DNA of 26,236 nucleotides. Source: an uncultured Melioribacteraceae bacterium. GTDB taxonomy: Bacteria > Bacteroidota > Ignavibacteria > Ignavibacteriales > Melioribacteraceae. The notes beneath the pieces are model-generated. The model was not told where the DNA came from, made no database searches, and saw only the letters and a list, made by a program, of their open reading frames with translations. Positions 559 to 5,545 of the stretch are shown in pieces (the first letter of the stretch is position 1; every line of letters starts with the position of its first letter). A program made the position numbers and the translations under genes. The DNA lies in NCBI GenBank assembly GCA_964601095.1, contig CAZRMG010000002.1, positions 3,202 to 29,437 on the forward strand, in the 5' to 3' direction.

Positions 559-2784
559 CTAAATTCCGACACTAAAACCAAAGACTATCATTCTTTGACC
601 AAAGTAGCTTTCTATTTCATTTCTGTTTCTGTAGTCTGCCGAATATGAATAGCCGAAAATATTATTGAAATCAAAAATATTTATTCCTTCTACGTAGCCA
701 ACAAAAGAATATTTTTCAAAGAAAGTATTGAGATATGTTAAGCGAAGATCTATTCTTTTATAGTCCGGGAAGCGTGATGAATTTGTTTGAGCATAAACGG
801 GCTCGTATAAATTTATGTCGTTTCGGTAATACGAATCAACCGCAGGTGTAAATGGTCTTCCGGTAGCATATTTTGCCGTTAATCCAATTTGAATATTTTC
901 GGTCAACCCGTACCGAGCAACGACAGATATATTGTGTGTTATATCGAAATCGCTGCTTGTTTTGTTATCATAATCCATCCACAATCTTTTAGTATTTATA
1001 TAACCGTAAGATATCCATCCGTTTATGTTGAACGGAAAATCTCCTTTGAAAATAATATCTATTCCGTTTGCAAAACCGCTGCCGGAATTGTCATAATTTA
1101 ACAAGTCGTTTTCGAGAGGAAGATTTTTGTATTCTTTAGTATAAACTTCTACACGGAATGAATTTAAATCGCTTAACAAGTATTCATACGAGGCAATTAA
1201 ATGAAGGGCTTGCATCGGTTTTAAATTCGGGTTGCCGTCAACGGGACTGTATAAACGGGGATCGGGTATTTGTTTGAAAACACCGGCACCGAAACGAAAT
1301 ATTGATTTATCATTTAATTTATATCCAAGCCCGAAACGCGGATCCACCCAATTAACATTCAAATCAACAAAATTATCATAACGGAGTCCGGCCGTAGCCG
1401 ATAAATTTTCTATTCCCAGAAAATGCGCTTGTTGAAATTCAGTGAAAGCGCCGAATCTTCTACCGTTAAATTTTGAATCAATAATTTTTGCATAGCCGTC
1501 GGGACGAATATCATAATCTTCAACCGGGATTATTCCTTCGTATTGAACAACTCGGTTCTCAATTTCGGCACCTGCAAGAAGTTTAGAGCGTGCGCTTAAA
1601 ATAAATTCAAGATCGCTTCTTAACGTATAAACGTAATCTGTTTTCTGAATGTCCAGAATACCGAGTTTCCACGAATTAGAATATTTGTTATAAGCAGCAC
1701 TGTTTTTGAAAACTATGTTGTCGAAAATAACATCTGTTGATTGAAGATTTATGAAAGTGTTTTTAGTATTCCCGTCGAATACGCCGTTATATTCAGCGCG
1801 TTCAACATTAACTCCCTGCTTATCGTCTGCAAGAATTGTAAACAACTTTAACTTACCCGTATCCGAATACTTATAGACAATCCCGCCGGAAAAATTTTTG
1901 GCTAACGGAGCAACAGTCATTCTATCTTGTCCGCCGTTTAACCAATAAATAGGTTTCACAAAACTTTGCTGGGCATCGAAATAAAGTCCCAATTTTTCGG
2001 GAATAATATTAATACCAGAAGCAATATTGACGCTTGCAAGCGATACGCCCAAGTTGAAATTAGTTTGGATAATTTGATCCCTTGTTTCAATATCCAATAC
2101 TCCCGACAAAGCATTTCCATATTTAGCAGAGAAACCTCCGCTTGTGAAATAAATTGATTTAACCGCGCTTTGATTCAAATTAGAAAACAGGCCGCCATAA
2201 GCAGACTCATATGTGAAAGGATGATAAACAACGGATTGATTTATCATTGTAATTGTTTCTATGGGGTCACCGCCGCGAACATATAGCTGCGCGCTTTCGG
2301 AAACCTGTGTTACACCCGGCATTGTTTTTAATGATTGATAAATATCAGTCGCCCCGCCGGGAGTTGTTAATACATCAATTCTGCTAATTACCAATCCCTT
2401 TTCTTTTTCCGAGCCGTAAGAACTTGCAGTTACTATTGTTTCGTTTAATTTAACAGCGCTTTCTTTTAGAACTATCTCTTCATTTATTTTTATTGAAGAA
2501 GCTAATTCAATTTCTTTAGAATGCTTTTCGTAACCAATAATACTTGCAATCAAAATAACTTTTCCTTCGAACGATGTTTTGAAGCTAAACGAGCCGTCAT
2601 CATCGCTCATTGTTCCGTCCGACGTATTCAAAAGAAATACATTTACATAAGAAATCGGTTTACCATTTTCATCTGTAATTCTTCCGCTTATTAATAATTT
2701 GTTTTGGGCAGTCAAGTTCATTACCGCTATTACAGAGACTATCATGATGTATAAAATCTGCTTCATTTTATTTGCCTGTTTCAT
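559..2784 (-). CDS. TonB-dependent outer-membrane receptor with N-terminal carboxypeptidase-regulatory-like domain and plug domain
   Basis: 741 aa. Signal peptide; ISGRITDENGKPISYVNVFL...GTMSDDDGSF (CarboxypepD_reg-like); plug motif LKTMPGV...LYVRGGDP; FSAKYGNALSGVLDI; beta-barrel-like C-terminus (YKRIDLRL...GINIFDFNN). Confidence 0.92.
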   Translation of the reverse strand: MKQANKMKQILYIMIVSVIAVMNLTAQNKLLISGRITDENGKPISYVNVFLLNTSDGTMSDDDGSFSFKTSFEGKVILIASIIGYEKHSKEIELASSIKINEEIVLKESAVKLNETIVTASSYGSEKEKGLVISRIDVLTTPGGATDIYQSLKTMPGVTQVSESAQLYVRGGDPIETITMINQSVVYHPFTYESAYGGLFSNLNQSAVKSIYFTSGGFSAKYGNALSGVLDIETRDQIIQTNFNLGVSLASVNIASGINIIPEKLGLYFDAQQSFVKPIYWLNGGQDRMTVAPLAKNFSGGIVYKYSDTGKLKLFTILADDKQGVNVERAEYNGVFDGNTKNTFINLQSTDVIFDNIVFKNSAAYNKYSNSWKLGILDIQKTDYVYTLRSDLEFILSARSKLLAGAEIENRVVQYEGIIPVEDYDIRPDGYAKIIDSKFNGRRFGAFTEFQQAHFLGIENLSATAGLRYDNFVDLNVNWVDPRFGLGYKLNDKSIFRFGAGVFKQIPDPRLYSPVDGNPNLKPMQALHLIASYEYLLSDLNSFRVEVYTKEYKNLPLENDLLNYDNSGSGFANGIDIIFKGDFPFNINGWISYGYINTKRLWMDYDNKTSSDFDITHNISVVARYGLTENIQIGLTAKYATGRPFTPAVDSYYRNDINLYEPVYAQTNSSRFPDYKRIDLRLTYLNTFFEKYSFVGYVEGINIFDFNNIFGYSYSADYRNRNEIESYFGQRMIVFGFSVGI

Positions 2785-3566
2785 TTGCTTACAATTTTCT
2801 TTTCTAATTCCGGAAGAAGAGAATATTTTACCCAGCCGTATTCCGGTTCAACGCTTAATGCTTTTTTATATGTAAACATCGCCGCTTCGTTGTTCTCTAA
2901 TTTTTCTTGTGTTCTGCCTGTCCACACAAGAGTTTCGGCGTAGCCCCAAACAGGATTTATACTTTTTACATTTTCATCATTTTCAAAAAGTCTTACAGCG
3001 TAATTGAAATTCTTCAATGCGTCTTCATAACTGCCTCCGAAGATTCCGGGCGTGTTGTATTTCATCATTCCCCTAATTACATAGCCGTAAGGTTTATTCG
3101 GCGCTATACTTTGTGCATCATCCAGTAAAGAATGAATTCGCGGCGAAAGTGTAACTGCACTCATTGGACTTGTTGCAATTTTCATCATATAAATTGCAGC
3201 AGAAAGAATTTTTCCATCTGCCGAAAATATTTTATCGCTTTCAAGTTTTTCCGCATTTTTCAAAGAGGTTTCGTAATACTTTTCAAACATACTTTCTCCA
3301 TTACTTTTCATACTCATTTCAAGTAGTTTATAATCAATGAGAGTTATATAGTATAGAGAAGTTAAGTCTGACTGGTTTTCCGACAGAACTTTTGCAAATA
3401 TCGAACGGGCTTCCAACATTTGCTCGGTGCTATAATTAAAATAAGCTGTTTTTAATTTTTCAACACCTTCATTAATTAAATTTTCCGACGAAACAGTTTG
3501 TGCCTGTATAAACATCGAAAATAAAGCAACAAGTATTATTGCTAATAATTTGACAGCGTTGTTCAT
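2781..3566 (-). CDS. Secreted tetratricopeptide-repeat (TPR)-like protein
   Basis: 261 aa. N-terminal signal peptide, helical Ala/Tyr/Leu TPR-like pattern (AMFTYKKALSVEPEYGW), AGGAG SD at 3577-3573, and a 4-bp ATGA overlap with the receptor gene. Confidence 0.8.
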   Translation of the reverse strand: MNNAVKLLAIILVALFSMFIQAQTVSSENLINEGVEKLKTAYFNYSTEQMLEARSIFAKVLSENQSDLTSLYYITLIDYKLLEMSMKSNGESMFEKYYETSLKNAEKLESDKIFSADGKILSAAIYMMKIATSPMSAVTLSPRIHSLLDDAQSIAPNKPYGYVIRGMMKYNTPGIFGGSYEDALKNFNYAVRLFENDENVKSINPVWGYAETLVWTGRTQEKLENNEAAMFTYKKALSVEPEYGWVKYSLLPELEKKIVSK

Positions 3567-3587: not shown

Positions 3588-3610
3588 AAAGTGCTTTGTT
3601 TTATAAAGTA
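3588..3610. promoter_or_regulatory. Palindromic operator-like box B upstream of the TPR-TBDR pair
   Basis: AAAGTGCTTTGTTTTATAAAGTA, 20/23 identical to the box at 4529-4551, with core CTTT-N7-AAAG dyad symmetry. Confidence 0.7.
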
Positions 3611-3624
3611 ATTCAACAAAAAAA

Positions 3625-3921
3625 TTATTTTTTAATCATCTTTTCCAATTGTTCCAGGTAAGCTTCAAATGCGTTTCTTCCTTTTTTAGATAGCGAATAA
3701 ACGGTTCTCGGTTTACGATCAACAAATTCTTTTTTAACAGAAATATATGCAGCATCTTCCAATTTTTTAAGATGTACGCTCAAGTTGCCGTCTGTCGCAT
3801 TCACTTTTTCTTTCACGAATACAAAATCCGCTTCATCAACGGCAATCAGCAAAGCCATAATAGCCAACCGAATTCTAGAGTGTATTATATCGTCTAATTG
3901 CTGATAATCAAAATCATTCAC
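3625..3921 (-). CDS. Winged-helix transcriptional regulator (HTH_34 / ArsR-MarR-like)
   Basis: 98 aa. LDDIIHSRIRLAIMALL...ATDGNLSVHLKKLEDAAYI...KPRTVYSLSKKGRNAF is typical of this family. The GTG start shares one base with the upstream TAG. Confidence 0.9.
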   Translation of the reverse strand: MNDFDYQQLDDIIHSRIRLAIMALLIAVDEADFVFVKEKVNATDGNLSVHLKKLEDAAYISVKKEFVDRKPRTVYSLSKKGRNAFEAYLEQLEKMIKK

Positions 3922-4514
3922 TATATGCCCGCTGTTTGTTTTTTGTATTTTCTATATAGTATAATTCCTGGTATTGTTTGAAGAAACAGCATTATAAAAG
4001 CCATCATTAAAAATTGATAATAAGAAGTTACAAACATCATCGCCACTCCTCCAATCCACCAACCGTAGGAAATATTTTTAAACCATTTTGAATCAATGAT
4101 TAAGCCGGAAACATAATACGCCATACCCCCTATAAGGCATGCAAAAGGACTAATCGCCCAATATGTTATAACTCCGGAAACCGGGCCTATGAAACCAACA
4201 ATAGTCATAGCAATGCCGCCGGTTGCCCAGATGGCACCAATAATTTTTCCGGCAAATGTTCCAGGGTGTTTTGCTTTTTGGTTTCTTTTATTGATGATTG
4301 AAAATACCCAGCCGATTGGAATAAGTGTGGCCCAAATCCAAACAAAGTTGAAGAAAATTTTATTAACTATAAATATGAACTGTAAAAACATACCAACAAT
4401 TACAAGAATTCCCCAAAAAATATAATCCAGACCGTCATCTATAACACTTTGTTTTGTCTCTTCAATCACCTTCCGTATAAATTGAAGCTCTTCGATTGCT
4501 TTGTTCTCGTTCAT
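3921..4514 (-). CDS. Multi-pass membrane protein of unknown function coupled to the wHTH regulator
   Basis: 197 aa. About six hydrophobic segments after an N-terminal AIEELQFIRKVIE helix; strong SD (AAGGAAGG) before the ATG; translationally coupled to the regulator. Confidence 0.85.
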   Translation of the reverse strand: MNENKAIEELQFIRKVIEETKQSVIDDGLDYIFWGILVIVGMFLQFIFIVNKIFFNFVWIWATLIPIGWVFSIINKRNQKAKHPGTFAGKIIGAIWATGGIAMTIVGFIGPVSGVITYWAISPFACLIGGMAYYVSGLIIDSKWFKNISYGWWIGGVAMMFVTSYYQFLMMAFIMLFLQTIPGIILYRKYKKQTAGI

Positions 4515-4528
4515 TACACCTTCCTTTT

Positions 4529-4551
4529 AAAGTACTTTGTTTTACAAAGCA
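4529..4551. promoter_or_regulatory. Palindromic operator-like box A between the promoter and SD of the membrane protein-wHTH operon
   Basis: AAAGTACTTTGTTTTACAAAGCA contains the perfect dyad CTTTGT-N3-ACAAAG (4535-4549), directly downstream of the predicted -10 element. Confidence 0.75.
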
Positions 4552-4580
4552 AACCTATCCAATTTATTTTTGTTTGTCAA
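4552..4580 (-). promoter_or_regulatory. Sigma70-type promoter for the membrane protein-wHTH operon
   Basis: Minus strand TTGACA (4580-4575), 17 nt, TAGGTT (4557-4552): perfect -35, ideal spacer, conserved T-A-x-x-x-T at -10. Confidence 0.65.
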
Positions 4581-4604: not shown

Positions 4605-5545
4605 CTATTCGGATTCGAGTCCTGCAATATCAAGAATATGTTTTGGAACCCGCGGTTCGCCGGCAAAGAAATCGCCCTTTTTGCCCAGTGTTAATGCCCA
4701 CCGATCTAACCAAGAGATGCCGTTATTCTTAATAAACGTGTTTTGCGATTTGTATGCTTCGTCGGCTAAAGCTTCTTCTAAAGGAATAAATTCGTAACTC
4801 TCCCCGCGAATCATTTCGCAAAGTTTATCGAAATAATCCGAATTTATTCTGTTGGAGTGAATGAGCAATATCTGATTGATTTGCCTTCCGAACAATTTTT
4901 GAGTTTGGTTTTCGAAGTAGCGGATTTTCTGTTTCATGTATTCAACATATTCTCCGCCGATTTTCTTTTTCAAATCTTCATCGCCGGACTTTACGGCATT
5001 ATCGTATGCGGCACCGTAAACCCACTCGGCATTGTCTATTGTTACGGGTGCTACAGTATAGCCGTGTTCACTTAAAAATTTTTCTATCTCGTTTCGGTAT
5101 TCATTTGTCAACCCTGTGTGCAAAAAAGGGTGGCGGAAAAACTTCGGTTTTTTCCTACTTCTTTAAGAATTTTTTTCGTTAAACACTCACCGAGCAAAAT
5201 ATCTTTTTTATAATCCTCGATAGAAGTTTTATGCGCGCTCGGATGCGAATATGTATGATTTCCCAATTCAACGCCGGCATCTCTCCACATTTTAAAAATG
5301 TTAACTCTTTCTGAATCCAACGCTCCATTGCTTTCCAGTTTATTCTCGTTTACAAAAGCAACAACCGGAATATGTTCGGATTTAATTTTTTCAAGAAGCC
5401 GAGAAACATTCATTTTAATTTCTTCGTTTGGTACTGATGAACGGTTAAACGGAAGATCATCTATTGTTACAGCAATTTTTTTCTTTTGCGGTAATACTAT
5501 CCCGGTAAAAACAAGAAACAAAGCTTTTGCGAACAATTTATTCAT
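4605..5545 (-). pseudogene. Polysaccharide deacetylase (NodB/CE4 family) split by a single frameshift at an A6 run (5148-5153)
   Basis: ORF 5108-5545 has motifs TIDD and NHTYSH. The other frame gives KPKFFRHPFLHTG (motif 3) and continues into ORF 4605-5123 with ILLIH (motif 5). One extra A in GGAAAAAACCG joins them into one protein of about 313 aa. Confidence 0.8.

Follow-up and report, generated by a model that had tools for sequence, protein, structure and literature searches.

Two palindromic boxes as candidate operators of a minimal HTH_34 regulator encoded with a six-helix membrane protein in an uncultured Melioribacteraceae bacterium

A stretch of 26,236 nucleotides (nt) from an uncultured Melioribacteraceae bacterium (contig CAZRMG010000002.1, positions 3,202 to 29,437) was analysed as a whole and is referred to here as the window, and all coordinates are numbered from its first base. 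A sequence-only reading of the window had drawn attention to two near-identical palindromic boxes, one ahead of and one behind a gene pair encoding a membrane protein and a small winged helix-turn-helix (wHTH) regulator. It had proposed that the boxes are operators through which the regulator controls itself and a downstream gene pair for a tetratricopeptide-repeat (TPR) protein and an outer-membrane receptor. This proposal is supported by phylogenetic footprinting, by the position of the first box at a promoter and by covariation between the boxes and the recognition helix of the regulator. These sequence comparisons make it very probable that the regulator itself binds the boxes, as part of a widespread switch that often acts on genes for outer-membrane uptake. 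The full explanation, in which the boxes are operators of an HTH_34 protein, the operon is negatively autoregulated, the outer-membrane pair is under the same protein and the signal arrives through the membrane partner, is assigned a probability of about 0.7.

Two near-identical boxes are unique to this locus in the genome

Box A (4529-4551) and box B (3588-3610), both read on the minus strand, were identical at 20 of 23 positions, as first reported, and a repeat finder extended the match to a direct repeat of 25 nt (22/25 identity) with its copies 941 nt apart. Box A comprises a core dyad GCTTT-N7-AAAGT (4550-4534) and a third half-site ACTTT (4533-4529), and box B a core dyad ACTTT-N7-AAAGC (3609-3593) and the same third half-site (3592-3588). 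Box A ends 14 nt before the ATG (4514) of the membrane-protein gene (3921-4514, minus strand; 197 amino acids). The regulator gene (3625-3921, minus strand; 98 amino acids) and the TPR-protein gene (2781-3566, minus strand; 261 amino acids) are separated by 58 nt, and box B occupies part of this gap, starting 14 nt past the stop codon of the former and ending 21 nt short of the ATG (3566) of the latter.

The whole 3.53-Mb assembly contained only these two sites, whether the 23-mer was searched with up to two mismatches or the 15-mer core was used. When 118 boxes from other species, and none from this genome, were used to train a weight matrix, the two boxes reached 33.5 and 33.0 bits, and the runner-up in the genome reached 18.0 bits. 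The genome scan with the box as a weight matrix, which had been suggested as a check on the sequence-only reading, thus set the two boxes far above all other sites, and the motif did not recur as a chance match would, being present in two copies per 3.53 Mb and retained near orthologous genes in other species. Because the assembly is 83% complete, additional sites may lie on the missing DNA.

The boxes are conserved at orthologous loci in distant phyla

With the membrane protein as query, homologues were found in 21 of 61 relatives, most of which retained the order membrane protein, wHTH regulator, TPR protein and receptor. A scan of species-representative genomes with an alignment of the regulator identified at least 595 loci, of which the best 80 were kept. 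These came from Ignavibacteria, Melioribacteraceae, Kapaibacteria, Bacteroidota, Calditrichota, KSB1, Marinimicrobia, Fidelibacterota, Cloacimonadota, Delongbacteria and Edwardsbacteria, with a few from Proteobacteria (Marinimicrobium, Parvularculaceae). The loci nearest to the one in the window belonged to Ignavibacteriaceae and Melioribacter metagenome-assembled genomes.

Footprinting was performed on 99 loci from other species in which the membrane-protein gene adjoins the regulator gene. The core motif was defined as ACTTT-N7-AAAGT with at most one mismatch, within 120 nt of the gene. It was found upstream of the membrane-protein gene in 76 of the 99 loci and past the regulator gene in 43, the rate for the remaining sequence of these loci being 0.015 per 120 nt. 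Conservation upstream of orthologues, on which the proposal of a regulator-specific site had been made to depend, was therefore evident. Loci lacking a nearby box A mostly carried a perfect box farther upstream, at the head of a longer operon and often before a second, tandem membrane-protein gene. In five loci with tandem membrane-protein paralogues before the regulator, the operator preceded the first copy and lay approximately 1.25-1.3 kb upstream of the regulator gene. An independent sample, drawn evenly as 301 genomes of the class, gave the regulator in 98 genomes and a perfect box within the 1.5-kb flanks in 20 of the 30 loci fetched.

These data bear on the simplest alternative, that the boxes resemble each other by chance or are remnants of a small repeat. 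The region is AT-rich (36% G+C) and short AT-rich matches are common; however, the sites are kept at orthologous positions in about 100 species in which the flanks are not, and only two copies exist in the genome. The probability of either origin is accordingly negligible.

A site of three half-sites would cover the predicted start of the regulator operon

Information content in the aligned boxes was highest on ACTTT and AAAGT, while the 7-nt spacer was about 80% A/T without conserved sequence; the intergenic flanks were not conserved either. The dyad had been described as TRCTTTGT-N3-AYAAAGYA. Its ACTTT/AAAGT arms were kept across species, but the inner GT/AC pairs were not, and a third half-site, ACTTT, has to be added directly 3′ of the dyad. 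This third half-site (nCTTT, mostly ACTTT) was present in 59 of 77 A boxes and 40 of 43 B boxes, so that the usual form is ACTTT-N7-AAAGT-ACTTT. In 17 A boxes AAAGY preceded the dyad, either replacing the third half-site or alongside it, and the fullest form observed was AAAGYACTTT-N7-AAAGYACTTT. On sequence grounds, the extra half-sites suggest that more than one dimer may occupy a site.

Box A begins 1 nt after the -10-like hexamer TAGGTT (4552-4557, minus strand) of a candidate promoter, P_A, whose -35 hexamer TTGACA (4575-4580, minus strand) lies 17 nt upstream of TAGGTT and is conserved across loci. Of 77 loci, 64 had TTGACA with at most one mismatch ahead of box A, and the commonest distance to the start of the box was 24 nt. 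In most loci of the FCB (Fibrobacteres-Chlorobi-Bacteroidetes) group the box directly followed a TAnnTT hexamer located 17-18 nt past the conserved TTGACA. The site immediately behind the -10-like hexamer would therefore span the expected transcription start, so that the candidate operator would overlap the core promoter or the start. In the proteobacterial loci, the half-site TACTTT itself was found 17 nt after TTGAC[AT], occupying the place of the -10 hexamer. Two loci with this arrangement (L088 and L098) are gammaproteobacterial and include the cultured Marinimicrobium agarilyticum DSM 16975 (L098). At sigma-70 promoters, a site directly after the -10 hexamer or at it is a repressing position, where activators normally do not act. 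The original assignment of box A to a repressor position behind TTGACA-17-TAGGTT is thus borne out, and the same arrangement recurs in most FCB-group loci.

The same features could be taken to mean that the boxes are themselves promoter or other core transcription elements, repeated at two transcription units. TACTTT fits the local TAnnTT pattern of -10 hexamers and stands 17 nt after TTGAC[AT] in some Proteobacteria, and the A/T tract that keeps a fixed distance of 8 nt to box B is reminiscent of an UP element. A sigma factor, however, needs no dyad with a fixed 7-nt spacer, and such a dyad is what is conserved. Separate -35 and -10 hexamers already precede the box at P_A, the motif occurs nowhere else in the genome, and it varies with the recognition helix of the regulator, as described below. 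Promoter elements are for these reasons an unlikely explanation of the boxes, although it is possible, as part of the operator explanation, that one half-site serves as both -10 hexamer and operator.

A third alternative is that the boxes act as RNA, forming a hairpin in the 5′ leaders of the membrane-protein and TPR-protein mRNAs and controlling translation or stability. Both boxes lie 14-21 nt ahead of a ribosome-binding region, and box A can form an 8-bp hairpin. Folding was nevertheless no better than that of shuffled sequences (z -0.77 and -0.20), and the best fold at box B lacked the palindrome hairpin. The conserved third half-site has no pairing partner and yet covaries with the dyad, the palindrome of a paralogous system (7-1-7, see below) leaves no room for a loop, and in the proteobacterial loci a half-site at the -10 place would be upstream of any transcript. 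Control by an RNA hairpin is therefore very unlikely.

Upstream of P_A, a polysaccharide deacetylase gene appears to be split into two overlapping open reading frames on the minus strand, one at 5108-5545 with a truncated Polysacc_deac_1 match and one at 4605-5123 with no match. A frameshift or an assembly error could lie behind this split (4605-5545). The deacetylase gene ends only 25 nt before the -35 hexamer of P_A, and no terminator was predicted in between.

Box sequence covaries with the recognition helix of the regulator

The regulator matched the Pfam family HTH_34 (PF13601) over all 80 profile positions (E 1.4e-32; 112.1 bits, cut-off 27). Its predicted structure, with a mean predicted local distance difference test (pLDDT) score of 94.2, consists of a wHTH fold and a C-terminal helix. 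The closest solved structure was PH1061 of Pyrococcus horikoshii (1UB9), with a template-modelling score (TM-score) of 0.87, followed by the PadR-type Rv3488 (TM-score 0.71-0.74) and proteins of the MarR and ArsR types. Residues S15, R18, L19, L25, F33, G45, N46, L54, Y59, K64, F66, P71, G81, A84 and Y88 were invariant in the alignment, which contained no conserved Cys, and the protein has no room for a ligand domain.

A recognition helix of the form [TS]DGNLS[VTI]H co-occurred with ACTTT boxes, and the regulator in the window has TDGNLSVH. Where the helix differed, so did the boxes. In a clade of paralogues of about 45% identity, found in four genomes including this one, the helix is AAGNISIQ and the palindrome GTTAATAWTATTAAC, with a 7-1-7 geometry, stands at the same two places, before the membrane-protein gene and after the regulator gene. 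In the present genome this paralogue is on contig C344 (L024, L106), outside the window, where a six-helix membrane protein and a second full HTH_34 protein are encoded with a secreted transglutaminase-like protein and GTTAATAWTATTAAC-like palindromes; the same module layout is repeated in three other genomes. At locus L014, with the helix TDGNLGAH, ACTCT-N7-AGAGAACTCT was found at both positions, all three half-sites being altered alike. At locus L022 the helix is TKGNLSVHLS and the repeat is again different. No relative of the L014 regulator closer than 61% identity was present among the 301 genomes of the class, so the ACTCT variant remains a single case. Few as they are, the variant loci look as would be expected if each regulator reads the boxes beside its own gene.

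This pattern also bears on the possibility that the boxes belong to an unlinked transcription factor, such as a global regulator, and that the wHTH gene lies beside them without a role. Many families of regulators bind AT-rich palindromes, and the tie between the boxes and the HTH_34 protein is drawn from sequence. Against an unlinked factor, the genome holds only two sites, both at this locus; the box accompanies the membrane protein-wHTH pair through more than eight phyla; and the paralogous pairs with another recognition helix have another palindrome at the same two places. An unlinked factor is thus an improbable owner of the boxes.

Box B is associated with a TPR-receptor cassette

The TPR-protein gene downstream of box B overlaps by 4 nt, at its stop codon, the start of a receptor-like gene (559-2784, minus strand; 741 amino acids). 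The TPR protein has an N-terminal signal peptide and is expected to be secreted. Its TPR matches were below the Pfam thresholds, its look-alikes in the Atlas were TPR clusters (0.97-0.98), and it is syntenic in relatives. The 741-residue protein had been labelled a TonB-dependent receptor. It matched CarbopepD_reg_2 (E 5e-19), and its Atlas look-alikes were CarbopepD_reg_2 and TonB_dep_Rec_b-barrel clusters (0.99-1.00) in which 70-84% of members carry PF00593. The label is likely, from these clusters together with a Plug (PF07715) match that stayed under its threshold (22.6 bits, cut-off 23.9); no barrel match was obtained in the Pfam search for PF00593 at E <0.01. The only sequence match in the PDB was the N-terminal extension of a SusC homologue.

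The presence of box B followed the nature of the downstream genes. All 34 loci with a TPR homologue immediately behind the regulator gene had it, as against 2 of the 28 in which a receptor homologue is the next gene, or lies farther downstream without an intervening TPR gene. Other cargo after the pair depended on the lineage, and included pterin-4a-carbinolamine dehydratase followed by receptor and TPR protein, a nitroreductase-like protein followed by a receptor, an FtsX/MacB-type permease, an ABC ATPase and DUF2306. One Ignavibacteria clade (12 loci) has the order regulator, pterin-4a-carbinolamine dehydratase, receptor and TPR protein, with no box B. Given this variation, the conserved core is the membrane protein-wHTH pair with box A, and the TPR-receptor cassette is its commonest cargo, which brings box B along.

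Seven consecutive T (3618-3624, minus strand) stand ahead of box B and stop 8 nt short of its core dyad. In 37 of the 43 loci with box B, a run of at least five T stopped exactly 8 nt short of the box irrespective of the position of the stop codon, and an AnTn pattern was frequent in this A/T tract. The tract may contribute to a roadblock site or serve an internal promoter as an UP-like element. The notion that the T run is a degenerate fourth half-site one 17-bp period upstream was thought unlikely, as the invariant C is missing. The geometry of box B would fit a weak internal promoter with the A/T tract as UP-like element, the core dyad filling a 17-nt spacer and TACTTT as the -10 hexamer. 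A promoter of the Bacteroidota type (TTTG / TAnnTTTG) was rejected by eye on account of unsuitable spacing. A generic promoter and terminator scan listed neither a promoter nor a terminator between the regulator and TPR-protein genes. Public DNA runs that contain this stretch came from bioreactor, landfill and manure metagenomes, and no RNA run was among the public runs listed for it.

The membrane partner may relay a signal to the regulator

The regulator had been described as translationally coupled to a protein of roughly six transmembrane helices, and both parts of this description held. The GTG start codon of the regulator gene has one base in common with the stop codon of the membrane-protein gene, and the AlphaFold2 model of the membrane protein (pLDDT 88.4) shows an N-terminal helix, taken to be cytoplasmic, and six transmembrane helices joined by short loops. 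By the positive-inside rule, both termini and a conserved TFAGK loop would be on the cytoplasmic side. The N-terminal helix is among the best conserved parts of the protein, with A6, E9 and I13 invariant or nearly so, and no His, Glu, Asp, Cys or Ser is among the invariant residues. The protein belongs to no known family: it had no Pfam or NCBIfam match, all 120 homologues listed are named hypothetical, and it has no solved analogue, with no PDB match at E ≤0.001. The best fold match was the UreI urea channel (TM-score 0.44-0.48), and the AlphaFold DB clusters that resemble it are unnamed or carry DUF2157 or DUF2178.

Since the regulator has no ligand domain, a signal would most likely be relayed by the co-translated membrane partner, as the sequence-only reading had suggested. 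Consistent with this suggestion, a prediction of the regulator-partner complex scored 0.52, and the best of three controls 0.00, with at least 80% of contacts agreeing between runs and a partner pLDDT of at least 79; this result was nonetheless graded as weak support. In the benchmark, whose counts hold only roughly here because custom alignments were used, 58 of 80 solved complexes attained the mark applied, as against 2 of 110 mismatched pairs; only 7 of the 80 solved complexes, but both of those mismatched pairs, attained it with scores of 0.60 or below. Control of the repressor by its membrane partner is plausible, at slightly less than even odds.

Discussion

In the mechanism proposed here, a dimer of the HTH_34 regulator, or two dimers, would recognise ACTTT-N7-AAAGT together with the adjoining third ACTTT. 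Box A would be an operator (O_A) that begins right after the -10 hexamer and covers the transcription start, so that protein bound there would block transcription of the regulator's own operon, giving negative autoregulation. Box B (O_B) would place the TPR protein and the receptor-like protein under the same regulator. It could do so by occluding a weak internal promoter that uses the third half-site TACTTT as its -10 hexamer, or as a second operator, whether roadblock or loop anchor, within a single four-gene transcript. The membrane partner would pass on the signal by capturing the regulator on the cytoplasmic side of the membrane or letting it go.

Several observations weigh against this explanation or parts of it. 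P_A was not listed by a generic sigma-70 promoter scan, its -10 hexamer being weak relative to TATAAT. The omission is explained by only three of the six positions of TAGGTT matching TATAAT, and promoter-like sites in that scan were no more numerous than in shuffled sequences. At box B no -35 hexamer was conserved across loci, and in two loci a ribosome-binding site directly abuts the third half-site, which then fits poorly as a -10 hexamer. Lineages differ in the cargo, and the module can therefore exist without the outer-membrane pair. The covariation of helix and operator comes from few independent lineages, namely one clade in four genomes and two single loci. The complex prediction is weak, and predictions of this sort fail more often than they succeed, except where the interaction was likely beforehand. 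Finally, a search for longer proteins containing the regulator gave no membrane protein-wHTH fusion, the one longer protein being of 241 amino acids on a 988-nt contig; long open frames considered as fusion candidates proved to be out-of-frame overlaps.

A bolder interpretation is that the six-helix protein and the HTH_34 protein form a new and very widespread one-step transmembrane signalling pair, in which the membrane protein would sense an envelope or membrane cue and hold or release a minimal repressor, box B with its A/T tract at a set distance would be a dedicated second control point before the cargo, either as an internal promoter with an embedded operator or as a block to transcription that depends on the repressor, and the operator ACTTT-N7-AAAGT would have stayed nearly unchanged from Ignavibacteria to Proteobacteria. 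Taken together, these propositions are tentative, and we regard the whole as rather doubtful.

Small repressors with palindromic operators are textbook biology. What is distinctive here is an HTH_34 regulator from a family in which no characterised member was found, a six-helix partner that belongs to no family, and the occurrence of the pair in hundreds of species of distant phyla. The comparison yields a precise operator, a helix that likely determines specificity, natural specificity variants and cultured carriers, so that an unstudied pair becomes directly testable; M. agarilyticum DSM 16975 is a cultured organism in which this could be done. If the partner does control the repressor, signals would pass from the membrane to genes by a compact route, to be set alongside two-component systems and sigma/anti-sigma pairs. 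It would operate in Ignavibacteriota, Bacteroidota and their relatives, phyla for which the control of outer-membrane uptake genes is understood only in part.

Comparison with known systems

The only solved HTH_34-like protein, PH1061, resembles the regulator in length (about 100 amino acids) and fold, with 28% identity and a profile E value of 9e-10. It differs in being archaeal, and it was deposited as a hypothetical protein or regulator homologue. A full-text literature search gave no target DNA, partner or function for PH1061/1UB9, and nothing relevant on PF13601/HTH_34, with no characterised member, or on the membrane protein-wHTH pair. The earlier statement that no signal had been described for the module therefore holds within the literature searched.

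Repressors of PadR subfamily 2, such as Rv3488 of Mycobacterium tuberculosis and LmrR of Lactococcus lactis, are like the regulator in being small wHTH proteins with one C-terminal dimerisation helix. They are autoregulated local repressors that act on AT-rich inverted repeats and sense ligands directly, with the operator ATGT-N8-ACAT. This operator differs from ACTTT-N7-AAAGT, and the regulator described here has a dedicated six-helix partner. It also fell below the PadR cut-offs (PF03551, 20.7 against 27; NCBIfam padR_acidobact, 16.3 against 101.8; NCBIfam Rv3488, 20 against 140). Nor is it ArsR/SmtB by profile (NCBIfam HTH_metalloreg, 25.4 against a cut-off of 55), and it lacks conserved Cys.

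The logic proposed here is that of the BlaR1-BlaI and MecR1-MecI systems, in which the gene for a small wHTH repressor lies behind a membrane-protein gene in one operon and the repressor acts on this operon by way of dyad operators. BlaR1 is a zinc protease (M56, HExxH) that cleaves BlaI and whose extracellular sensor domain binds penicillin. The partner in the window, in contrast, has 197 amino acids, no extracytoplasmic domain and no invariant His or Glu, and no Penicillinase_R or M56 match was found in the proteins of this locus with Pfam.

Sequestration at the membrane, the mechanism proposed here for the HTH_34 regulator, has a counterpart in Mlc of Escherichia coli, a repressor that is titrated from its operators by the membrane protein PtsG. 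PtsG is a transporter encoded elsewhere, and Mlc is a large protein of the ROK family, whereas here the two genes are adjacent and often overlapping, both proteins are small and their binding to each other is only weakly predicted. In FecA-FecR-FecI and the extracytoplasmic function (ECF) sigma-anti-sigma pairs of Bacteroidota polysaccharide loci, too, a TonB-dependent receptor gene is controlled by two proteins encoded next to it, one in the membrane and the other a small transcription protein of the cytoplasm. No sigma-70_r2/r4, FecR or STN domain was detected in the four proteins with Pfam or NCBIfam, and the regulator of the present locus is not a sigma factor but a wHTH protein of the repressor type.

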